In this document: piece after piece, positions 3,115-55,856 of the stretch
Layout: every line of letters begins with the position of its first letter
Numbering within the stretch: position 1 is the first letter of the stretch
Sequence record: NZ_CP145666.1
Reading direction: 5' to 3' (one strand)
Length of the DNA: 64,000 nt
DNA from: a plasmid
The notes under the pieces: generated by a model
Told to the model about the DNA's origin: nothing
What the model saw: only the letters and a program-made list of their open reading frames with translations
The model's database searches: none
Made by a program: the position numbers and the translations under genes

Positions 3115-3360
3115 GGCTTGTTATGACTGTTTTTTTGTACAGTCTATGCCTCGGGCATCCAAGCAGCAAGCGCGTTACGCCGTGGGTCGATGTTTGATGT
3201 TATGGAGCAGCAACGATGTTACGCAGCAGGGCAGTCGCCCTAAAACAAAGTTAGATGCACTAAGCACATAATTGCTCACAGCCAAACTATCAGGTCAAGT
3301 CTGCTTTTATTATTTTTAAGCGTGCATAATAAGCCCTACACAAATTGGGAGTTAGACATC

Positions 3361-10583: not shown

Positions 10584-11152
10584 TGAATCACCCACAACTT
10601 GAGCTAATAGTCGCTGTGGATTCTAATTTGGGATTCGGGAAAGGCGGCAAGATTCCATGGAAATGCAAAGAAGACATGGCGCGATTTACGCGGGTTTCTA
10701 AAGAGATCCGGGTGTGCGTTATGGGGAAACACACGTATACTGACATGCGTGACATGCAGTTAGAAAAGGATGGCGCCGAGGAGCGAATCAAGGAGAAAGG
10801 AATTCTCCCCGAACGTGAATCGTTCGTGATCTCCTCGACGTTAAAACAAGAAGATGTCATAGGCGCTACTGTCGTTCCTGATCTTCGTGCTGTGATCAAC
10901 CTGTATGAGAATACCGATCAACGCATTGCTGTCATTGGTGGGGAGAAGTTGTACATTCAAGCTCTTTCATCAGCAACGAAACTGCACATGACCATAATTC
11001 CAAGAGAGTTCGACTGTGATCGATTTATTCCTGTTGATCCGATCCAGAACAATTTTCACATTGATTCCAGTGCCAGCGAGACTGTGGAGGCAACCGTTGA
11101 TGAGACTCAAGAGCGCATTCACTTTGCTACTTACGTGCGTAACAATCAGTAA
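10583..11152 (+). CDS. dfrA19: Trimethoprim-resistant dihydrofolate reductase, dfrA19-like, associated with ISCR1
   Basis: The 189-aa DHFR-fold protein begins MNHPQLELIVAVDSNLGFGKGGKIPW. It is not an attC-bearing cassette and lies downstream of ISCR1. Confidence 0.75.
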   Translation: MNHPQLELIVAVDSNLGFGKGGKIPWKCKEDMARFTRVSKEIRVCVMGKHTYTDMRDMQLEKDGAEERIKEKGILPERESFVISSTLKQEDVIGATVVPDLRAVINLYENTDQRIAVIGGEKLYIQALSSATKLHMTIIPREFDCDRFIPVDPIQNNFHIDSSASETVEATVDETQERIHFATYVRNNQ

Positions 11153-17987: not shown

Positions 17988-18867
17988 GGCTCTGTTGCAA
18001 AAATCGTGAAGCTTGAGCATGCTTGGCGGAGATTGGACGGACGGAACGATGACGGATTTCAAGTGGCGCCATTTCCAGGGTGATGTGATCCTGTGGGCGG
18101 TGCGCTGGTATTGTCGCTATCCGATCAGCTATCGCGACCTTGAGGAAATGCTGGCGGAACGCGGCATTTCGGTCGACCATACGACGATCTATCGCTGGGT
18201 CCAGTGCTACGCCCCGGAGATGGAGAAGCGGCTGCGCTGGTTCTGGCGGCGTGGCTTTGATCCGAGCTGGCGCCTGGATGAAACCTACGTCAAGGTGCGG
18301 GGCAAGTGGACCTACCTGTACCGGGCAGTCGACAAGCGGGGCGACACGATCGATTTCTACCTGTCGCCGACCCGCAGCGCCAAGGCAGCGAAGCGGTTCC
18401 TGGGCAAGGCCCTGCGAGGCCTGAAGCACTGGGAAAAGCCTGCCACGCTCAATACCGACAAAGCGCCGAGCTATGGTGCAGCGATCACCGAATTGAAGCG
18501 CGAAGGAAAGCTGGACCGGGAGACGGCCCACCGGCAGGTGAAGTATCTCAATAACGTGATCGAGGCCGATCACGGAAAGCTCAAGATACTGATCAAGCCG
18601 GTGCGCGGTTTCAAATCGATCCCCACGGCCTATGCCACGATCAAGGGATTCGAAGTCATGCGAGCCCTGCGCAAAGGACAGGCTCGCCCCTGGTGCCTGC
18701 AGCCCGGCATCAGGGGCGAGGTGCGCCTTGTGGAGAGAGCTTTTGGCATTGGGCCCTCGGCGCTGACGGAGGCCATGGGCATGCTCAACCACCATTTCGC
18801 AGCAGCCGCCTGATCGGCGCAGAGCGACAGCCTACCTCTGACTGCCGCCAATCTTTGCAACAGAGCC
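17988..18867 (+). mobile_element. IS6100 (880 bp, IS6 family)
   Basis: The terminal IRs GGCTCTGTTGCAAA / TTTGCAACAGAGCC lie 880 bp apart. Confidence 0.9.
18049..18813 (+). CDS. tnpA: IS6100 transposase
   Basis: The 254-aa protein begins MTDFKWRHFQGDVILWAVRWYCRYPISYRDLEEMLAERGISVDHTTIYRW. Confidence 0.9.
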   Translation: MTDFKWRHFQGDVILWAVRWYCRYPISYRDLEEMLAERGISVDHTTIYRWVQCYAPEMEKRLRWFWRRGFDPSWRLDETYVKVRGKWTYLYRAVDKRGDTIDFYLSPTRSAKAAKRFLGKALRGLKHWEKPATLNTDKAPSYGAAITELKREGKLDRETAHRQVKYLNNVIEADHGKLKILIKPVRGFKSIPTAYATIKGFEVMRALRKGQARPWCLQPGIRGEVRLVERAFGIGPSALTEAMGMLNHHFAAAA

Positions 18868-21508: not shown

Positions 21509-24500
21509 ATGCCCGTTGACTTTCTGACCACTGAGCAGACTGAAAGCTATGGCAGATTCACCGGTGAACCGGATGAGCTTCAGCTGGCACGATATTTTCA
21601 CCTTGATGAAGCAGACAAGGAATTTATCGGAAAAAGCAGAGGTGATCACAACCGTCTGGGCATTGCCCTGCAAATTGGATGTGTCCGTTTTCTGGGCACC
21701 TTCCTCACCGATATGAATCATATTCCTTCCGGCGTCCGGCATTTTACCGCCAGACAGCTCGGGATTCGTGATATCACCGTTCTTGCAGAATACGGTCAGA
21801 GGGAAAATACCCGCCGTGAGCATGCAGCGCTGATACGTCAGCACTATCAGTATCGTGAATTTGCCTGGCCCTGGACATTTCGCCTTACCCGTCTTTTATA
21901 TACCCGGAGCTGGATAAGCAACGAACGTCCTGGCCTGCTTTTCGATCTGGCGACAGGGTGGCTTATGCAACATCGTATTATTCTCCCCGGAGCCACTACG
22001 CTGACCCGGTTGATTTCAGAGGTAAGGGAAAAGGCGACGTTGCGCCTGTGGAACAAACTGGCACTGATACCGTCAGCCGAACAGCGTTCACAGCTGGAGA
22101 TGCTGCTGGGGCCAACTGATTGCAGCCGCCTGTCTTTACTGGAATCACTGAAAAAGGGCCCTGTGACCATCAGTGGTCCGGCGTTTAATGAAGCAATTGA
22201 ACGCTGGAAAACTCTGAACGATTTTGGCCTGCATGCTGAAAACCTGAGTACACTCCCGGCTGTGCGCCTGAAAAATCTCGCACGTTATGCTGGTATGACT
22301 TCGGTGTTCAATATTGCCAGGATGTCACCGCAGAAAAGGATGGCGGTTCTGGTTGCCTTTGTCCTTGCATGGGAAACGCTGGCGCTGGATGATGCATTGG
22401 ACGTTCTGGACGCCATGCTGGCCGTTATCATCCGTGACGCCAGAAAGATTGGGCAGAAAAAACGGCTCCGCTCGCTGAAGGATCTGGATAAATCTGCATT
22501 GGCGCTCGCCAGCGCATGTTCGTACCTGCTGAAAGAAGAAACACCGGACGAATCGATTCGTGCTGAGGTGTTCAGCTACATCCCAAGGCAAAAGCTGGCT
22601 GAAATCATCACGCTTGTCCGTGAAATTGCCCGGCCCTCAGACGATAATTTTCATGAAGAAATGGTGGAGCAGTACGGGCGCGTTCGTCGTTTCCTGCCCC
22701 ATCTGCTGAATACCGTTAAATTTTCATCCGCACCTGCCGGGGTTACCACTCTGAATGCCTGTGACTACCTCAGCCGGGAGTTCAGCTCACGGCGGCAGTT
22801 TTTTGACGACGCACCAACGGAAATTATCAGTCGGTCATGGAAACGGCTGGTGATTAACAAGGAAAAACATATCACCCGCAGGGGATACACGCTCTGCTTT
22901 CTCAGTAAACTGCAGGATAGTCTGAGGCGGAGGGATGTCTACGTTACCGGCAGTAACCGGTGGGGAGATCCTCGTGCAAGATTACTACAGGGTGCTGACT
23001 GGCAGGCAAACCGGATTAAGGTTTATCGTTCTTTGGGGCACCCGACAGACCCGCAGGAAGCAATAAAATCTCTGGGTCATCAGCTTGATAGTCGTTACAG
23101 ACAGGTTGCTGCACGTCTTTGCGAAAATGAGGCTGTCGAACTCGATGTTTCTGGCCCGAAGCCCCGGTTGACAATTTCTCCCCTCGCCAGTCTTGATGAG
23201 CCGGACAGTCTGAAACGACTGAGCAAAATGATCAGTGATCTACTCCCTCCGGTGGATTTAACGGAGTTGCTGCTCGAAATTAACGCCCATACCGGATTTG
23301 CTGATGAGTTTTTCCATGCTAGTGAAGCCAGTGCCAGAGTTGATGATCTGCCCGTCAGCATCAGCGCCGTGCTGATGGCTGAAGCCTGCAATATCGGTCT
23401 GGAACCACTGATCAGATCAAATGTTCCTGCACTGACCCGACACCGGCTGAACTGGACAAAAGCGAACTATCTGCGGGCTGAAACTATCACCAGCGCTAAT
23501 GCCAGACTGGTTGATTTTCAGGCAACGCTGCCACTGGCACAGATATGGGGTGGAGGAGAAGTGGCATCTGCAGATGGAATGCGCTTTGTTACGCCAGTCA
23601 GAACAATCAATGCCGGACCGAACCGCAAATACTTTGGTAATAACAGAGGGATCACCTGGTACAACTTTGTGTCCGATCAGTATTCCGGCTTTCATGGCAT
23701 CGTTATACCGGGGACGCTGAGGGACTCTATCTTTGTGCTGGAAGGTCTTCTGGAACAGGAGACCGGGCTGAATCCAACCGAAATTATGACCGATACAGCA
23801 GGTGCCAGCGAACTTGTCTTTGGCCTTTTCTGGCTGCTGGGATACCAGTTTTCTCCACGCCTGGCTGATGCCGGTGCTTCGGTTTTCTGGCGAATGGACC
23901 ATGATGCCGACTATGGCGTGCTGAATGATATTGCCAGAGGGCAATCAGATCCCCGAAAAATAGTCCTTCAGTGGGACGAAATGATCCGGACCGCTGGCTC
24001 CCTGAAGCTGGGCAAAGTACAGGTTTCAGTGCTGGTCCGTTCATTGCTGAAAAGTGAACGTCCTTCCGGACTGACTCAGGCAATCATTGAAGTGGGGCGC
24101 ATCAACAAAACGCTGTATCTGCTTAATTATATTGATGATGAAGATTACCGCCGGCGCATTCTGACCCAGCTTAATCGGGGAGAAAGTCGCCATGCCGTTG
24201 CCAGAGCCATCTGTCACGGTCAAAAAGGTGAGATAAGAAAACGATATACCGACGGTCAGGAAGATCAACTGGGCACACTGGGGCTGGTCACTAACGCCGT
24301 CGTGTTATGGAACACTATTTATATGCAGGCAGCCCTGGATCATCTCCGGGCGCAGGGTGAAACACTGAATGATGAAGATATCGCACGCCTCTCCCCGCTT
24401 TGCCACGGACATATCAATATGCTCGGCCATTATTCCTTCACGCTGGCAGAACTGGTGACCAAAGGACATCTGAGACCATTAAAAGAGGCGTCAGAGGCAG

Positions 24501-25821: not shown

Positions 25822-27251
<1,430 letters not shown>

Positions 27252-30583: not shown

Positions 30584-32204
30584 GGGGTCAGTTTGGATAT
30601 AGAGAATTATTGTACGGTAAGCCTGTTTTTTGAACAGACTTACCTATAGCAATAGGGTGTACTCCCGCGCTATACGGCATTTTCAGAGGTTTGACCTTAA
30701 TCGGATAACCTAAATGCGATACTGCAAGAGCGACAACTTAAAAGCGATAGCCACTGACGCAAAATCAACCACTTACGAACCAAGATTGGTTAAATAATGC
30801 GCTTAACGAATGGAAGGGACTTCCCCTGATTATGCGCCTGATTAACTCTTGTGCAATCATGGGGTACACATCGTCCCGGAGGAATTCGTTATGACTATCA
30901 CGACTGTCGGTATCGATCTTGCTAAAAATGTGTTTGCTGTTCACGGTGTTGATCAAAATGGTAGAACTGTTCTGGTTAAGCCTAAAGTATCGCGTGCTGC
31001 ACTTCCTGAGTTAATTGCAAGTTTGCCTCCCTGTGTTATCGGGATGGAAGCATGCTCCGGGGCTCACTACTGGGCAAGATTGTTTCGGCAGTATGGTCAT
31101 GAGCCACGTCTGATGGCTGCTAAGTTTGTATCGCCTTATCGTATGGCCGGAAAATCAGGAAAAAATGATGCAGCTGATGCTCAGGCTATCTGTGAAGCTG
31201 TTCGTCGTCCGCATATGCGGTTCGTACCAGTGAAAGACGAAAGCCAGCAGGCCATGCAGTGTTTACATCGTACCCGTCAGGGTTTTATCGAAGAGAAAAC
31301 AGCAACGTATAATCGTCTGCGAGGATTGATATCTGAATTCGGTGTCATCGCGCCACAAAGTGCTGATGCCCTGCGCCACATGGTTTCTGTGCAGAAGAGC
31401 TCTTTACCGCTTCAGGTTCAGCAATGTGTTGATGATTTGATGGAACACGTTGATCGCATTGAAGCTAACATCACTGAATATGACCGAATTTTGTCCCACA
31501 TAGCCAAAACAGATCATCGCAGTCAGCGGCTGATGGAGCTAAAGGGCGTTGGTCCCACAACGGCCTGTGCACTGGTCGCCAGTATCGGTAATGCACATGA
31601 TTTTAAAAATGGACGTCAACTGGCAGCCTGGCTGGGGCTGACGCCATCACAATACAGCAGCGGGGGAAAGTCGAAACTCGGCAGGATCACAAAAGCCGGT
31701 GATTCGTATCTGCGAACGCTTCTGGTTCAGGGGGCTCGTTCAGTGCTTATTGGCGCCGGGAAAAGGACTGACTCATTCAGCCGTTGGGTTTGTATGTTGG
31801 TTGAGCGCAGAGGGTACTGGCGGGCTGTTGTGGCCATCGCCGCCAAAAATGCGCGGCTGTGTTGGGCATCACTACATTACGGTGATGATTTCCGGCTGTA
31901 CTCAGTCAACTAAAGCTCGAAGCTGTATAACCATCTGACCTGCAATTCGTTGATGATAAAGGGTTAGACCCCGTGAGGCCTATCTGGCTATTGTACAGGA
32001 TATACGTATCCGCTTAACGAACAAGAACCTCACGCGCGTCTTTCATCAGGGCCCGAATCGATGACGATTCATCATGGCCGTTTATAGTACCGCAGTCTCT
32101 CCCCTTTATTTTTACTGAAGAGCAGACAGAAACCATAAATACCGGCTTTGACATGCCGGGGAAGTCCTTATAGTACAATAATTTTCGATATCCAAACTGA
32201 CCCC
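30584..32204 (+). mobile_element. IS110-family insertion sequence (IS1111-like) bounded by 32-bp imperfect inverted repeats
   Basis: GGGGTCAGTTTGGATATAGAGAATTATTGTAC at 30584-30615 matches the reverse complement of 32173-32204 (GGGGTCAGTTTGGATATCGAAAATTATTGTAC) at 30 of 32 positions. The pair encloses a DEDD transposase gene with ~275 bp of 5' and ~260 bp of 3' non-coding sequence. Confidence 0.65.
30891..31913 (+). CDS. IS110-family transposase (DEDD recombinase)
   Basis: The 340-aa protein begins MTITTVGIDLAKNVFAVHGVDQNGRTVLVKPKVS, an IS110 N-terminal DEDD signature. It ends LGLTPSQYSSGGKSKLGRITKAGDSYLRTLL, the IS110 C-terminal domain. Confidence 0.85.
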   Translation: MTITTVGIDLAKNVFAVHGVDQNGRTVLVKPKVSRAALPELIASLPPCVIGMEACSGAHYWARLFRQYGHEPRLMAAKFVSPYRMAGKSGKNDAADAQAICEAVRRPHMRFVPVKDESQQAMQCLHRTRQGFIEEKTATYNRLRGLISEFGVIAPQSADALRHMVSVQKSSLPLQVQQCVDDLMEHVDRIEANITEYDRILSHIAKTDHRSQRLMELKGVGPTTACALVASIGNAHDFKNGRQLAAWLGLTPSQYSSGGKSKLGRITKAGDSYLRTLLVQGARSVLIGAGKRTDSFSRWVCMLVERRGYWRAVVAIAAKNARLCWASLHYGDDFRLYSVN

Positions 32205-34857: not shown

Positions 34858-35748
34858 ATGAATATCTCAACAACTTTCCAGACGCTGGAGAGCGAGATCA
34901 CACAACTTCGTGGAGTGCTGGGTTCCCGGCTTCCGCTCAAGGCGAGTGTCTGCGTCCTGCCAGCCGTTGCTGATGGCGAAGAAGATATGGCCATCGAACA
35001 CATCATGCCTGAGCTGAAACAGGGACACGATGCTGTCCATGCTGCCTGCGCGGCATACGCTGACCTGCATATCAGGGATGGCTATTCGCAGAAGTCCGCT
35101 CGGCGCACTACCGGCGTATTATGGTACGACAATACAGATGCGGAATTCTCTCAGCTGGTTACCCGTTTGGTGACATCCATCAACCAGCATAAAGAGAGCA
35201 TTCAACGCCACATCATCGAAAACTACGGTGGTGATCGCCGACCGGAATACATGCGCTTCAACGCGCTGCATAGCGCCTGCCCTGGTGTCATGACCCTGCA
35301 TCTCTATCGGCAGCTGCGTATGTTTGATAATGCTAACGTCAATCTGGTCAGTTTCGGCTGGAGGCAAAAGACGCTTTTTAGCAGGGTTAACAAAATCGAG
35401 TTGCTCCAGAAGATGGGCAAGGACATCGAGGAAGATGAAGATAAATCAGTCAGACTCAACTCGTTGATTAAGGCTATTGCGCGTGTACCGGAAGAAAAGC
35501 TTCGCTTACGCCGTCCGGTTAAAGTGCATCCAGCTGCAAACATCGCGATGGCTGATCCTGAACACCCCGACCAGATACTGCGTCTTTCTGCCGCTTCATC
35601 TATGCCGTTCATTATCATTCAGGATGAGCACGTGAAAATTCGGCCATTGCCAGAGTTCGTGGCCAATGAAGTAAAGCCGAGGAGTAACCGCCTCAAGACA
35701 GATGTGATCGGTATATTCCACGGCGAAAGTATCGAAATGATTCTCTGA
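34858..35748 (+). CDS. Tus-like DNA replication terminus site-binding protein homologue
   Basis: Local matches to E. coli Tus: TTGVLWYDN versus LPGVLCYQVDN, GVMTLHLYRQLRMFDN versus GLITLNAYRTLTVLHD, VSFGWRQK versus LRFGWANK, and LRLRRPVKVHP versus LKIKRPVKVQP. Confidence 0.55.
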   Translation: MNISTTFQTLESEITQLRGVLGSRLPLKASVCVLPAVADGEEDMAIEHIMPELKQGHDAVHAACAAYADLHIRDGYSQKSARRTTGVLWYDNTDAEFSQLVTRLVTSINQHKESIQRHIIENYGGDRRPEYMRFNALHSACPGVMTLHLYRQLRMFDNANVNLVSFGWRQKTLFSRVNKIELLQKMGKDIEEDEDKSVRLNSLIKAIARVPEEKLRLRRPVKVHPAANIAMADPEHPDQILRLSAASSMPFIIIQDEHVKIRPLPEFVANEVKPRSNRLKTDVIGIFHGESIEMIL

Positions 35749-35841
35749 CCACACCGGCCAAAGGACTGGCCGTATTCCCCCCTCATAATTTCGTCACTCG
35801 CCGTCCATGCCATACCCTGAAACTAATATTGAAAATTCATT

Positions 35842-36441
35842 ATGTTCAGCAAGGAATGTGGCGTGAAATACTTTGAATGTGCGCTCAGGTTCAGAATCGC
35901 CCCAGGTGACGTGTATGGGATCCACCAGCAACTGGATAAGGTAGTCCAGGAACGTTCTGGGTCGCGACTCCCATACACCTTCTACTCTCGCAAACAAAGT
36001 GCCTCCGACACCCAGGTTGTTCTGAGAACGGCTGTTGCACTCGGGCTCCCTGGCGAAGTCATGAAGGAAATCATGTTTGTGTCTGGCCAGAAAATTCGAA
36101 TCTGCGGCTCGCTGGCCACTATTCGACGCGAGGAAGCTGGAGGCCGGAAAAGAGAGATTTGTCCACCTGCCCATGAACTCCCGGATTATATCCACTATCA
36201 CCTGGAACGGGCCGGAGTGATCTGTGGACGGTTACGTATCGTTCGAAGCACCAAGTTCCATATTATTAAGCCCGGGAGCGTTGGCCGTACATCCCACAAG
36301 ATCATTGTACCGATGAGCCAGTACGATGCTGAATGCGTGATTGAAGATGTCGGCGCACTTGAACAGGCATACGCTTTCGGGATCGGCAGAAAGCGGATAT
36401 TCGGCTTTGGCTATATGAACAGCATCGAAGTGCTTTCCTGA
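35842..36441 (+). CDS. Cas6e (CasE/Cse3)-like RAMP endoribonuclease homologue, orphan
   Basis: The 199 aa equal the length of E. coli Cas6e. The N-terminal DVYGIHQQL resembles the Cas6e catalytic-His region DLYQLHQGL. The C-terminal glycine-rich loop GIGRKRIFGFG fits the GhGxxxxxGhG signature (GIGPAKSMGCG in Cas6e). Confidence 0.5.
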   Translation: MFSKECGVKYFECALRFRIAPGDVYGIHQQLDKVVQERSGSRLPYTFYSRKQSASDTQVVLRTAVALGLPGEVMKEIMFVSGQKIRICGSLATIRREEAGGRKREICPPAHELPDYIHYHLERAGVICGRLRIVRSTKFHIIKPGSVGRTSHKIIVPMSQYDAECVIEDVGALEQAYAFGIGRKRIFGFGYMNSIEVLS

Positions 36442-36729
36442 ACAGGCCATTAAGCATAGTTATTATCTGAATTTCAAACCGACTCGCAAACTTACGGCAT
36501 TAACACTTCTGATACACCCTTTAAATGCTGTAAACTGTTGTAGCCCTTACTAAATCGTAAGAGTGGGGATTTGCAGCCCCGACTAATGACACGCCGTTCA
36601 TGTACTTGAACGGTTCGCACTCGCTCGCCTGTTTTTTGTCAATGGTGGGTCGGGGCGTGGGAGCCTTACGGCTCGCCAGTCGTCATTAGCTGGTACTGCA
36701 AACCATGTTCCGATTCACCACCAAAGGAA

Positions 36730-36987
36730 ATGGAGATGGAAAAACAGGACTGGCATAAGGCAGACATCATAGCTGCGCTACATAAGAAAGGTTTGTCACT
36801 TGCCTCACTGAGTAGGGCTAACGGTCTTTCAAGCAGCACTCTGGCAAATGCACTGACACGTGACTGGCCTAGAGGCGAGATCATCATCGCTAATGCAATT
36901 GGTGAAGAACCTCAAGAAATATGGCCAACCCGATATTTTGATAAGGCAGGAATGCCGATCAAGAGAATCATAAGAAAACCGGTTTAA
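36730..36987 (+). CDS. Ner/Nlp-family HTH DNA-binding protein
   Basis: The 85-aa protein contains DWHKADIIAALHKKGLSLASLSRANGLSSSTLANALTRDWPRGEIIIANAI, which resembles Mu Ner (DWHRADVIAGLKKRKLSLSALSRQFGYAPTTLANALERHWPKGEQIIANAL). Confidence 0.65.
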   Translation: MEMEKQDWHKADIIAALHKKGLSLASLSRANGLSSSTLANALTRDWPRGEIIIANAIGEEPQEIWPTRYFDKAGMPIKRIIRKPV

Positions 36988-37734: not shown

Positions 37735-38511
37735 TCAGAGCTGTGGCAATGGCCCCTGGTTATCTTCAGTCGCAGCCTGGTCTTTATCCGGGGTGGCCGT
37801 TGCAGTCCGCGAGGCATCAAATGAGACCGTTGGGTCGCTGAGAGTCAGGATGCCAGTGTCTTCAACTTCTCGCGTTGTCAGCGTAAGCTCAGATTTACTG
37901 TCATCACACTTATTCGTTTTCTCCGCCAGTGCCTTGCACCAGATATAACGACCTCTCTGGGCATCAGAGACTGAAGGCTCTCCATATTTCTCGATCGCCG
38001 ACTTCAGTAAGAGATCAGGGTTGCTGAATGAAAAGCGGATTTTGTAAGCCACCGGCTCAATGGGGTCAACTGCCGTATCGGGGATAAAATAGACCACCGT
38101 CTCCTGGTGAGCATCTCCCCAGAAAATACTATTCAATGAGTTGTTACTGTAGCGCTTTTGAATTTCTTCACCAGCAGACTGGCCAAGTTTGTCAGTGATA
38201 GCAGTGATCGCTTCAGAAGCTGTCATCCGCAGGCTTACCGGCCCTATAGAAAAAGACATAACATCAAAGCTATTCAGGGGGGTAATGGTGCTTTCTGGAG
38301 CGGTAGATGAATCGGGTACGTCATCACTGTACAGACTGTCATCCCCCGGAGAAGGCGTTACAGGTGCTGAATTTTGGATGTCAGGTGTGTAGCTGGGATC
38401 GGGAGCGTATAGGCCCATTGTATCATTCTGTACAGCAGAATATACCGAAGCGGTCGGCAGGACGGTAAGGAGCGCAAGGGCGCAGTATCCAAGGTATCTG
38501 GTCATATTCAC
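37735..38511 (-). CDS. Secreted hypothetical protein with a signal peptide and a Pro/Ser/Asp-rich N-terminal region
   Basis: A 258-aa ORF begins with the hydrophobic leader MNMTRYLGYCALALLTVLPTASVYSA. Confidence 0.5.
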   Translation of the reverse strand: MNMTRYLGYCALALLTVLPTASVYSAVQNDTMGLYAPDPSYTPDIQNSAPVTPSPGDDSLYSDDVPDSSTAPESTITPLNSFDVMSFSIGPVSLRMTASEAITAITDKLGQSAGEEIQKRYSNNSLNSIFWGDAHQETVVYFIPDTAVDPIEPVAYKIRFSFSNPDLLLKSAIEKYGEPSVSDAQRGRYIWCKALAEKTNKCDDSKSELTLTTREVEDTGILTLSDPTVSFDASRTATATPDKDQAATEDNQGPLPQL

Positions 38512-42416: not shown

Positions 42417-42740
42417 ATGCCTAAAGACGATGTTGCAACAATCATAATCCAGAATGGGTTGACGCATAAAGTAAATGTGATCTGCAAATTCAGCGCACAA
42501 ATCGACAATCAAATGTTCTCATTCATCATCCATCGCACATTAAGCGTATGTCGATATGCGCTTGTCTGTAAGGCAACAGGCCAAAGAATTGCAGTTCTTG
42601 ATACCAGTCGAGTAAAGGCACTTGGTATGGAAGCAGCAGGTAAACTAGCGCTATCAGATCTGGCCTCATCATTAGGCGAGACTAGACTTGCTGCGATTCT
42701 GACAAATTCACTTCAGAGCAGGAGCGCGGCAAGTGAGTGA
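42417..42740 (+). CDS. Hypothetical protein
   Basis: A 107-aa ORF that overlaps the next gene's start by 8 bp. Confidence 0.4.
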   Translation: MPKDDVATIIIQNGLTHKVNVICKFSAQIDNQMFSFIIHRTLSVCRYALVCKATGQRIAVLDTSRVKALGMEAAGKLALSDLASSLGETRLAAILTNSLQSRSAASE

Positions 42741-43803
42741 TTTAATCGACGATAACTTTATTATTCCTGCACTGAGTAGCATAGCAGGCATCACCACGCC
42801 ACTATCAGGACAAACGTACAGGAACGCTCCAGATATCGACATATCTTGCTATGACGTGATAATCATTTGCCTTAGCGGCGGAAAAGACTCCATAGCCTGC
42901 CTTCTCCACTTAATTGACATCGGGGTCGATCTGTCCAGGGTGGAACTCTGGCATCACGATGTTGATGGCCGCGAGGGAAGTACTTTAATGGACTGGCCAT
43001 TTATGGCCGACTACAACCGCAAAATAGCTTCAACATTTCAGATACCGTTGATGTTCTCCTGGCTTCAGGGAGGAATGGAAGGTGAGATGCTGAAAGAGAA
43101 TGGCTACAGTCGCCCGCAATGTATCGAAACCCCAGATGGATTAATAATCGCGGAACGTGATATCCAGCGAAGCACTCCCGCCACGCGACTTCGGTTCCCT
43201 CAGCAATCACCAAGCCTTAAAACACGTTGGTGCTCATCAGCACTAAAAATTGATGTTGGTCGGCGAGCACTCACAAATCAGAGACGCTTTGACGGAAAAA
43301 AGGTGCTTTTTATTACGGGGGAAAGGAGAGCGGAAAGCTCTAATAGATTCAATTACTTACAACTGGAGCCACATACCAGCAGTTGCAAAAAAAGACAAGT
43401 TGATGCCTGGAGGCCAGTACTTGAATGGTCTGAAGAACAAGTCTGGGAGATTTTAGCAAAACATCGTGTTACAGCCCCAGTACCGTATCGTCTTGGATGG
43501 GGTCGCAGTTCATGCTTAACGTGTATATACAACAGTGCTCGCATATGGGCAACCATCAAACATTATTTCCCCGAGCGTATTCACGCAATGGCCAACTATG
43601 AAAACCGCTTTGGGGTCACTATCAGTCGTAAACGAATAAATGTTCTGGATCTAAGCCAGAATATTTCTCCTATTAATATCACGGATGAGGAAGCGCTGCT
43701 GCAAGCGGTAAATCCGGTCTATACATTGCCCGTCATTAACATGTCAAAAGAATGGGTGCTACCTGGTGGGGCGTACAACCGGGAGAAATGCGGGTCAGAC
43801 TAA
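42733..43803 (+). CDS. PP-loop ATP pyrophosphatase of the PAPS-reductase / DndC / SspD-like family (GTG start)
   Basis: The PP-loop IICLSGGKDSIACLL (SGGxDS) lies near the N-terminus. The protein is 356 aa. Confidence 0.65.
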   Translation: MSDLIDDNFIIPALSSIAGITTPLSGQTYRNAPDIDISCYDVIIICLSGGKDSIACLLHLIDIGVDLSRVELWHHDVDGREGSTLMDWPFMADYNRKIASTFQIPLMFSWLQGGMEGEMLKENGYSRPQCIETPDGLIIAERDIQRSTPATRLRFPQQSPSLKTRWCSSALKIDVGRRALTNQRRFDGKKVLFITGERRAESSNRFNYLQLEPHTSSCKKRQVDAWRPVLEWSEEQVWEILAKHRVTAPVPYRLGWGRSSCLTCIYNSARIWATIKHYFPERIHAMANYENRFGVTISRKRINVLDLSQNISPINITDEEALLQAVNPVYTLPVINMSKEWVLPGGAYNREKCGSD

Positions 43804-54884: not shown

Positions 54885-55034
54885 CAAAACGCTCTCGTTT
54901 TGTCGGCCTTTTCGAAATAGCCAATTTCATGGGCGTGATAACGTTAAAACAAGCTTCCTGACGGGATGGCTATATGCCATCTCGCTCCCATTGGTCGCGA
55001 TCACTGCGTCCTAATATTCTGGAGCCAGAATGAA

Positions 55035-55856
55035 ATGAAAAGCGTTCTGAAGTGGGTAGGAGCCAAACACAACATTATGGCAAGTCTTAAGCATGTACTA
55101 CCGAAAGGTGGTCGGCTTATTGAGCCCTTTGGCGGTTCAGGCGCTGTAATGATGAATACGAATTACCCAGAATACATTTTGGCCGATATTAATAGCGACC
55201 TGATCGATACATACCAGAGTATTTTTAAGTCGCCTGAAAAGGTACTTTCTGAGCTTAAACGCCTTTACTGTCTCGGGCGTTCTGAGGACGCCTATTATGA
55301 GCTGCGAAGCCAGTTCAATAATCATGATAGTGCAAGTGACACTCAAGCTGCTCTGTTTATCTATCTGAATAGGTTTGGCCATCGCGGACTATGCCGATAC
55401 AACCGGAAAGGCATCTTTAACGTCCCCTGGGGTTATTACGCCAACCCCTATCTCCCAGAGACAGAGTTATACGCAATGGCTGAGAAAATGTCCTCAGCAA
55501 CTTTACTTTGCGCCAGCTTCCAGACCACGCTATCAATGGCCCGCCCGGGTGATGTGGTGTATTGCGACCCACCATATGTTAATCCCGGCAGATTCACGGC
55601 TTACCATGCCAGCGGTTTTACACCCGCTATGCAGATTGAGCTTACCAAACTGCTCCAGTTGCTGCCTGAACGCGGGGTTCATGTCATCGCATCATGCCAC
55701 GATGCGCCTGATATTCGTGAGCTTTATCAAGCCTTCGCTATTCATGGTGTGACTGCCCGGAGAAGCATATTTAAAGGCAGCGGGGATGGGAAAAAAGCTT
55801 CAGAAATCTTCGCGGTCAAATTAGCGGATAACTCGAAAAAGGGAGCTGCGGCATGA
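55035..55856 (+). CDS. dam: Dam-family N6-adenine (GATC-type) DNA methyltransferase, orphan
   Basis: The protein begins MKSVLKWVGAKHNIMASLKHVLPKGGRLIEPFGGSGAVMM (motif I) and contains DPPY (motif IV). Confidence 0.85.
   Translation: MKSVLKWVGAKHNIMASLKHVLPKGGRLIEPFGGSGAVMMNTNYPEYILADINSDLIDTYQSIFKSPEKVLSELKRLYCLGRSEDAYYELRSQFNNHDSASDTQAALFIYLNRFGHRGLCRYNRKGIFNVPWGYYANPYLPETELYAMAEKMSSATLLCASFQTTLSMARPGDVVYCDPPYVNPGRFTAYHASGFTPAMQIELTKLLQLLPERGVHVIASCHDAPDIRELYQAFAIHGVTARRSIFKGSGDGKKASEIFAVKLADNSKKGAAA

Follow-up and report, generated by a model that had tools for sequence, protein, structure and literature searches.

A solitary cas6 gene of the type IV-A3 lineage beside tus in the backbone of large Enterobacterales plasmids

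The DNA analyzed here is a 64,000-nt stretch of a plasmid (record NZ_CP145666.1; hereafter the window, to which coordinates refer unless another sequence is named). On its plus strand, positions 35842-36441 hold an open reading frame (ORF), the longest at this position, which encodes 199 amino acids (aa) from an ATG at 35842. Almost certainly, this is an intact gene for an endoribonuclease of the Cas6e fold that belongs to the lineage of type IV-A3 Cas6 (Csf5) and stands alone, without further cas genes or a CRISPR array. Given this lack of partners and of an array, it seems to be retained for a task outside an ordinary CRISPR system. The protein family, the RefSeq label of the gene and plasmid-borne orphan cas loci in general are known already. 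In the literature we found no description of a conserved, tus-linked clade of single cas6 genes that is sister to IV-A3 Cas6 and part of the plasmid backbone across Enterobacteriaceae and Morganellaceae.

An earlier note, made from the letters of the sequence, had proposed a Cas6e-like RAMP endoribonuclease at this position, and profile searches, structure prediction and motif alignment all agree with that proposal. The PADLOC model PDLC01711 “Cas6_0_IVA3” (typeIV_Cas6), which has no curated cutoff, matched the product with E=1.1e-38 and 131 bits (residues 9-195 against positions 3-187 of the 189 in the profile). A profile built from 35 family members matched the CasE/Cse3 proteins of Escherichia coli and Thermus thermophilus in the PDB over their full length (E ~1e-10). 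The AlphaFold2 model, computed from the same 35-sequence alignment, reached a mean predicted local distance difference test score (pLDDT) of 96.1 and a predicted template modelling score (pTM) of 0.88. The comparison with Cas6e structures that the note had called for was carried out with Foldseek against the PDB: the top matches were all Cse3/CasE, including 3qrp_A (E=1.1e-11, template modelling (TM) score 0.76) and 4u7u_D (TM score 0.75/0.76). The modelled fold consists of two RRM/ferredoxin-like halves, with a C-terminal glycine-rich loop. With E values of this order and a confident model matching Cse3/CasE, the similarity to Cas6 is beyond chance.

Two motifs had been singled out in the note, and both stand in alignment with their counterparts in E. 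coli CasE. In the profile alignment, the “YxIHQ” segment of DVYGIHQQL is homologous to the catalytic-histidine region DLYQLHQGL of 4u7u_D, and H21 (numbering of the 192-aa product described below) aligns with the catalytic His20; of the 35 family members, at least 90% have this residue. The sequence GIGRKRIFGFG aligns with the G-rich loop GIGPAKSMGCG of the same protein and hence is no chance match. The family-invariant residues Y18, H21, Y38, R55 and K136 and the G173-G183 loop are all kept, as are all positions invariant among the Cas6 proteins encoded in IV-A3 operons. Specific to the orphan proteins is a strongly basic hairpin, RRE..GRKRE(I/V)(C/T)PP..EL, at residues 88-106 (model strands 88-92 and 95-99), at the place where Klebsiella IV-A3 Cas6 has KGTKSEGRGRRQ. 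We take the corresponding hairpin in Cse3-RNA structures to read the major groove of the RNA; if so, RNA binding would be retained and its specificity may have shifted.

The fold bears out the “Cas6e” label that the note had given, whereas the lineage does not. The match to TIGR01907 reached 14.2 bits, where the cutoff is 45.2, and was confined to the C-terminal 32 residues (161-192), PF08798 scored 23.2 bits against a cutoff of 25, and the best PADLOC Cas6e model scored 18.5 bits as compared with the 131 of the IV-A3 model. Since both cutoffs are missed, these curated profiles do not admit the gene to type I-E Cas6e. An exhaustive HMMER search over 1.84 billion representative proteins (a word-indexed search gave just 6-9 relatives) delimited a small family of 49 clusters, mostly of ~190 aa, in which the Klebsiella pneumoniae IV-A3 Cas6 is cluster P0011. 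In a neighbour-joining tree (200 bootstraps), small and distance-based and thus only indicative of topology, an Enterobacterales Cas6 clade with 97.5% support splits in two. One group (83.5%) contains Cas6 proteins from complete IV-A3 operons, namely those of K. pneumoniae (locus L005), Klebsiella grimontii (L009) and Citrobacter sp. (L007) and P0009. The other (79%) unites the window gene with its 79%-identical orthologue (P0002, locus L002), the Morganellaceae cluster P0007 and the protein of Morganella psychrotolerans (L006). The orphan Cas6 thus lies outside the operon-encoded IV-A3 clade, as its sister, and shares 32-36% identity with operon-encoded IV-A3 Cas6. Intact orphan genes of 188-192 aa occur in three lineages that are 41-46% identical to one another.

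The equality in length with E. coli CasE (4qyz_K, 199 aa), to which the note had pointed, is numerically correct but coincidental. The translation start is likely the GTG at 35863, giving a cas6 gene at 35863-36441 (plus strand) with a 192-aa product: at the upstream site the 79%-identical orthologue lacks an ATG, its called product begins MKYYE, and a Shine-Dalgarno-like AAGGAA, read from the sequence at 35851-35856 and conserved in the orthologue, lies 6 nt upstream of the GTG. RefSeq (the Prokaryotic Genome Annotation Pipeline) calls just 36061-36441 (22062-22442 of locus L001), that is, the C-terminal 126 aa from Met74, and in ~100 plasmids names the product “type I-E CRISPR-associated protein Cas6/Cse3/CasE”. 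Judged on start and lineage as predicted here, this annotation is wrong, as it drops the N-terminal half with the presumed catalytic His and misnames the subtype.

The solitary status of the gene, also claimed in the note, was examined at three levels: the window, a complete sister plasmid and the plasmid population. A tblastn search of the window with Cas8, DinG, Cas5 and Cas7 of the K. pneumoniae IV-A3 locus L005 returned nothing (E<=1e-4), and a PADLOC scan of all 104 window ORFs of at least 110 aa gave no second Cas match; the other matches were orphan methyltransferases and PAPS-reductase-like proteins. Neither Tandem Repeats Finder nor a spaced k-mer chain detector, which recovers the array of L005 as a positive control, revealed a CRISPR array in the window. 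On the complete sister plasmid NZ_CP056246.1 (178,786 bp), which carries an identical locus, the sole cas annotation, read end to end, is the orphan cas6; tblastn for the four IV-A3 partners was empty (E<=0.01) and there was no CRISPR array. Judged by this sister plasmid, no cas operon or array sits just outside the stretch analyzed, the finding that the note had named as fatal to its claim. Window and complete plasmid alike lack a type I-E operon (cas3-cse1-cse2-cas7-cas5-cas6e-cas1-cas2) with its I-E array, and the IV-A3 neighbours (csf1/cas8, dinG, csf3/cas5, csf2/cas7 and an array of the 29-nt GTATTCCCCCCGYRTGCGGGGGTTATCGG type) are missing as well.

The sole array-like chain on NZ_CP056246.1 was rejected as a CRISPR array, being a 56-bp tandem repeat without unique spacers. 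Its six copies, 82-92% identical, lie directly upstream of parA-parB (132043-132490 of NZ_CP056246.1, corresponding to 18043-18490 of locus L011) and probably constitute the partition site.

From position 32166 onward the window is 99.98% identical to the Citrobacter freundii plasmid p705SK3_1, and the cas6 locus recurs at an identity of at least 99% in ~100 PLSDB plasmids of ~180-450 kb, which places the orphan on a plasmid backbone, as had been supposed. The hosts of these plasmids are Citrobacter, Klebsiella, Enterobacter, E. coli, Salmonella, Kosakonia, Kluyvera and Raoultella, and among the plasmid records opened the relaxase is of the MOBH family wherever typed. Homologues of Csf2 were found in 473 PLSDB plasmids, just three of them from Citrobacter, while the orphan-type cas6 is present in 75 Citrobacter plasmids; Csf2 is missing from nearly all of the ~100 cas6 plasmids. 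In PLSDB as a whole, cas6-like sequences occur in 957 plasmids as against the 473 with csf2 (cas7), so that many Klebsiella plasmids carry cas6 without cas7, an excess that fits the partial IV-A3 loci described in PMC7434947.

Immediately upstream of cas6 lies a tus-like gene for a DNA replication terminus site-binding protein (34858-35748, plus strand; Pfam Ter, E=5.5e-45; NF002810, 297.8 bits, just below the cutoff of 323). Without exception, the orphan cas6 genes recovered (L001-L004 and L006) have a tus gene as upstream neighbour, and no tus gene is found beside the three complete IV-A3 operons. The gene order is umuD-umuC-tus-cas6 in the window, L001 and L002, tus-DUF6710-cas6 in the MOBH plasmids of Proteus and Providencia (L003, L004), where cas6 is truncated by a transposon, and tus-small ORF-cas6 in Morganella. 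Between the lineages, Tus has diverged in step with Cas6, each to ~45% identity (for Tus, in the Morganellaceae MOBH plasmids), and within 10 kb on each side the window and the Morganella locus have only one further gene in common, a 258-aa ORF (37735-38511). The parallel divergence and the scarcity of other shared genes suggest that the tus-cas6 pairing reflects old backbone synteny rather than recent transfer. At ~36536, downstream of cas6, the sequence GTTGTAGC resembles the Ter core GTTGTAAC.

The tus gene is a transcription unit separate from cas6. A hairpin, CGGCCAaaggacTGGCCG (35754-35772, plus strand), follows the tus stop codon, and between it and cas6, 76 nt before the GTG, lies the 11-nt motif AATTTCGTCAC (35787-35797, plus strand), a probable promoter or operator element. 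The motif stands 60-80 nt upstream of cas6 in all lineages (L002, L003/L004 and L006), despite the low identity of the proteins. In NZ_CP056246.1, ATTTCGTCA[CG] occurs six times as compared with 0.7 expected (at most four in 200 shuffles), and each of the six copies lies in an intergenic region, 50-130 nt upstream of a gene with the same orientation. The form (A/G)ATTTCGTCA(C/G) is found at 35787, 42363, 43829 and 62563 (plus strand) of the window and at 26648, 35410, 55344, 56810, 63386 and 122816 of NZ_CP056246.1. Its presence upstream of cas6 in all lineages and at other backbone genes indicates that cas6 has a regulatory element of its own, and the motif probably marks a small regulon of the plasmid backbone that includes cas6. 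No canonical sigma-70 promoter was predicted upstream of cas6 on the plus strand, and in a Pfam scan of the other motif-bearing genes the only functional hints were a PAPS-reductase domain and PerC.

The block downstream of umuDC consists mostly of co-oriented small genes, among them ssb, an orphan Dam methylase gene and rdgC. Backbone genes whose domains recall defence or anti-defence are found at 42733-43803 and 54966-55856 (plus strand): one for a PAPS-reductase-domain protein, and an ORF annotated by RefSeq as a Dam-family methylase. They share this mostly co-oriented block with ssb, rdgC and dnaN. In a pooled PADLOC scan, in which the ORFs are not specified, BrxP-, DndC- and SspD-type models matched one ORF each (E between 1e-8 and 1e-13) and an orphan methyltransferase model matched with E=3e-86. 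Directly upstream of umuDC in Klebsiella plasmids is the complete IV-A3 locus (cas8-cas6-dinG-cas5-cas7-array; 9207-18506 of L005 and 9207-17747 of L009), and the umuDC genes linked to it are 52% identical to those preceding tus-cas6 in the window; cas6 thus stands within a few kb of umuDC in both plasmid families, on opposite sides. The left part of the window (1-32165), up to the backbone junction at 32166, is a mosaic resistance region absent from p705SK3_1. It contains matches to the class 1 integron attI/AAC_AAD_leader at 3204 and 11798, and for this half the best-matching records annotate a Tn3-family transposase, ISCR1, IS26-like copies, tet(D), TEM-1 and ampR.

Comparison with the syntenic 79%-identical orthologue in L002 gave a ratio of nonsynonymous to synonymous substitution rates (dN/dS) of 0.094 for cas6, at a dS of ~1.2. 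The neighbouring genes gave 0.038 (umuC), 0.040 (tus) and 0.067 (helix-turn-helix (HTH) gene) in the same comparison. The orphan cas6 is thus under strong purifying selection, somewhat weaker than that on its neighbours. Damaged copies also exist: clusters P0004-P0006 are truncated or frameshifted, and those of L003 and L004 are the transposon-truncated genes mentioned above.

Cas6 is the enzyme that cuts CRISPR RNA. Repeat-like sequences were sought in the window and in the whole plasmid. The best matches to the IV-A3 repeats of K. pneumoniae and K. grimontii and to the I-E repeats of E. coli and Salmonella had 9-11 mismatches in 29 nt (10-11 for the IV-A3 repeat GTATTCCCCCCGYRTGCGGGGGTTATCGG), equal to those in shuffled sequence. 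One candidate was the 11-mer GTATTCCCCCC at 35772, identical to the first 11 nt of the 29-nt Klebsiella IV-A3 repeat (GUAUUCCCCCCGCAUGCGGGGGUUAUCGG). It was rejected as a degenerate or stand-alone repeat and judged a chance match, because it has 11 mismatches in 29 nt, as shuffled sequence does, lacks the 3′ stem arm, is replaced by GTAAACCTCCCC in L002 and overlaps the hairpin distal to tus. The hairpins of the 5′ untranslated region differ between lineages.

Approximately 200 nt 3′ of cas6, at 36638-36725 (plus strand), a C4 antisense RNA is predicted (Rfam RF01695, 62.9 bits against a gathering threshold of 45). It lies immediately upstream of a Ner/SfsB-like HTH_35 gene (36730-36987) and occupies the same place in L002 (10780-10867), but it is absent from the Morganellaceae orphan loci and was therefore rejected as a general Cas6 substrate; it belongs to the adjacent Ner-like HTH module. 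The ~200-nt non-coding stretch at ~36530-36730, which comprises the C4 RNA and ~100 nt upstream of it, is almost identical to L002 at ~10670-10870, whereas the flanking coding sequences are 78-84% identical, which indicates a much stronger constraint on this stretch than on the genes. A 79.6-kb E. coli plasmid (NZ_CP082350.1, 59200-60899; H193) shares with the window just the segment 36163-37862, at 100% identity. This segment carries the 3′ portion of cas6 together with the C4 RNA, the HTH gene and a GNAT gene; the C4-HTH-GNAT module thus moves independently of an intact cas6.

The head of the effector is formed by the Cas6e-type enzyme, which remains on the 3′ hairpin; for IV-A3 Cas6 the defining activity is cleavage of the cognate repeat at the hairpin base, after which the enzyme would stay on the 3′ handle and head the Csf complex. 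With no repeat-like substrate in cis and both RNA-binding and catalytic residues kept, action in trans appears most likely. The orphan Cas6 would bind, and probably cut, repeat-type stem-loops transcribed elsewhere in the cell, their source being either the chromosomal type I-E arrays of the hosts or the IV-A3 arrays on co-resident IncHI1B/FIB plasmids. As a foreign Cas6 it would capture the hairpins without being able to dock on the resident Cas7 filament, CRISPR RNAs (crRNAs) would end in non-productive particles and the plasmid would be protected. The protein would then be a decoy, or an anti-CRISPR-like competition factor. We tentatively favour this interference with CRISPR in trans and give it a probability of roughly one in three, inhibition being its weakest step. 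Its boldest form, a backbone decoy that blocks assembly of I-E or IV-A3 effectors and would be the first protein anti-CRISPR or inter-plasmid competition factor derived from Cas6, we consider rather unlikely. Large conjugative plasmids in these same host genera are the preferred targets of IV-A3 systems (Benz et al., bioRxiv 10.1101/2023.06.23.546257), whose repeats and leaders resemble those of I-E (PMC7434947). Samuel et al. 2024 (PMC11541004) described anti-defence islands on plasmids, with oriT and umuCD as their boundaries. The present layout, with umuDC immediately upstream and ssb, the orphan Dam methylase gene and rdgC downstream on the same strand, resembles that pattern of a leading region, though oriT and the relaxase gene were not located.

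Several observations weigh against such interference. Neither oriT nor a relaxase gene was located within ~70 kb downstream in NZ_CP022152.1, and umuDC runs in the same orientation as the block, which sets it apart from most cases in PMC11541004. The dN/dS of 0.09 shows conservation, not an arms race. Given the 32-36% identity to operon-encoded Cas6 and the differing basic hairpin, the RNA specified may not be a CRISPR repeat. Moreover, a supply of mature crRNA allows Cascade to function in the absence of Cas6e, and occupancy of the hairpin need not inactivate the effector. A megablast search with the 25-kb backbone stretch 34801-59800 (E<=10) returned only homologous plasmids and no spacer-sized match of at least 28 nt in any PLSDB plasmid, from which it follows that no plasmid-borne IV-A3 array in PLSDB targets this stretch. 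The 25 spacers of the L005 and L009 arrays gave only chance matches of 11-17 nt to the plasmid.

A rival reading is domestication: the Cas6 fold would now recognize a stem-loop of non-CRISPR origin in a plasmid or host mRNA and, by cleaving or binding it, control the expression of backbone genes as an RNase or RNA-binding regulator. The element AATTTCGTCAC is common to at least five other backbone promoters and conserved in the Morganellaceae relatives, the gene has kept its syntenic slot by tus through ~55% protein divergence, purifying selection is of housekeeping-like strength, and a basic hairpin unlike that of the operon clade fits an altered RNA specificity. A plausible target is harder to name: no repeat-like hairpin rises above chance in the window or the plasmid, the C4 RNA is not a general substrate, the 5′ hairpins vary by lineage, and we found no precedent in the literature; we regard domestication as possible but doubtful. 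A helper function, in which resident systems or orphan arrays (e.g. partial IV-A3 loci or weakly expressed host I-E operons) would have their pre-crRNA processed in trans by the plasmid's enzyme, with host or plasmid as the beneficiary, seems unlikely by comparison. IV-A3 does share parts with I-E in trans, via Cas1/2e (bioRxiv 10.1101/2023.06.23.546257). The surplus of cas6-like over csf2-bearing plasmids in PLSDB suggests that modular or partial configurations are common, and the catalytic residues are retained. I-E operons, however, encode their own Cas6e, the plasmid has no orphan array, and no benefit to it is evident. Likewise, every complete or partial IV-A3 locus examined has its own cas6 (see also PMC7434947).

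That the gene is a relic of a I-E or IV system, one of the possibilities raised in the earlier note, is disfavoured by the dN/dS ratio and the deep syntenic orphan clade, and we consider it very improbable that it is the non-functional last gene of a degraded IV-A3 or I-E locus once situated near umuDC. The truncated and frameshifted copies and the complete IV-A3 locus that also adjoins umuDC in Klebsiella IncHI1B/FIB plasmids would suit such an origin, and plasmid orphan cas loci are often read as products of decay (PMC9071438). Decay is difficult to reconcile, however, with low dN/dS across a full-length orthologue at this dS, with intact genes in three such divergent lineages, with an orphan clade that is monophyletic and as deep as the operon clade, and with the conservation of the putative promoter motif, the Shine-Dalgarno sequence and all family-invariant residues. 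Nor would a simple deletion suffice, cas6 being downstream of umuC here and upstream of umuD in Klebsiella. Least probable of all, to the point of being negligible, is an ordinary Cas6e serving a type I-E system elsewhere. The RefSeq product name says so, and the structures matched by Foldseek and profiles are I-E Cse3/CasE; these are the only close structures, the IV-A3 Cas6 having been left unmodelled in the cryo-electron microscopy map (PMC11519345). The curated TIGR01907 and PF08798 cutoffs refute this family assignment, the IV-A3 model far outscores the best Cas6e model, the tree groups the gene with IV-A3 Cas6, and the plasmid carries no I-E gene.

The favoured reading, interference in trans, has a parallel among RNAs. 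RNA anti-CRISPRs built from solitary repeats are mimics of CRISPR components carried by mobile elements. The proposed logic is alike, in that one piece of a CRISPR system would divert its partners into dead-end complexes; here the piece is a protein instead of a repeat RNA. We know of no anti-CRISPR derived from Cas6.

Among known systems, the closest relative is the IV-A3 Cas6 (Csf5) of Klebsiella IncHI1B/IncFIB plasmids (L005, NZ_CP056276.1; PMC7434947, bioRxiv 10.1101/2023.06.23.546257, PMC11519345), a protein of the same family and of ~190 aa. It shares with the orphan the invariant residues and the G-rich loop, and it too is encoded near umuDC on very large Enterobacterales plasmids (MOBH where typed). 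The orphan gene differs in being flanked by tus instead of cas8/csf1, dinG, cas5 and cas7, in lacking a 29-nt repeat array, in its sister position in the tree and its own basic β-hairpin, and in a promoter motif that it has in common with backbone genes. With the I-E Cas6e/CasE/Cse3 proteins of E. coli (4u7u_D, 4dzd) and T. thermophilus (3qrp, 2y8w) it shares fold (TM score 0.75-0.76), position of the His, G-rich loop and approximate size; the identity in structural alignments is only ~14-16%, the curated cutoffs are missed and the gene lies outside a Cascade operon. Like the orphan cas loci surveyed by Pinilla-Redondo et al. 2021 (PMC9071438), it is a plasmid-borne cas component without an array. 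According to these authors, orphan cas loci are possibly kept by selection for unknown functions, and type IV-B operons largely account for the surplus of such loci on plasmids. The gene described here is, unlike those, a single cas6 that forms part of the backbone beside tus in two bacterial families.

Large resistance plasmids of Klebsiella and related bacteria use IV-A3 systems as weapons against one another. A second, widespread family of multidrug-resistance megaplasmids, carried by Citrobacter, Klebsiella, Enterobacter, E. coli and Salmonella and with relatives in Providencia, Proteus and Morganella, keeps just the RNA-processing subunit of an IV-A3-like system, and has kept it intact, under selection, over a long time. 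The analysis also corrects a systematic error in RefSeq, where the gene is called from a start that truncates it and is assigned to the wrong subtype. Should the protein interfere with the biogenesis of crRNA, counter-defence would gain a new class and I-E or IV-A3 tools a natural off-switch; should its substrate be plasmid RNA instead, this would clearly be a Cas protein taken over for a non-CRISPR task.

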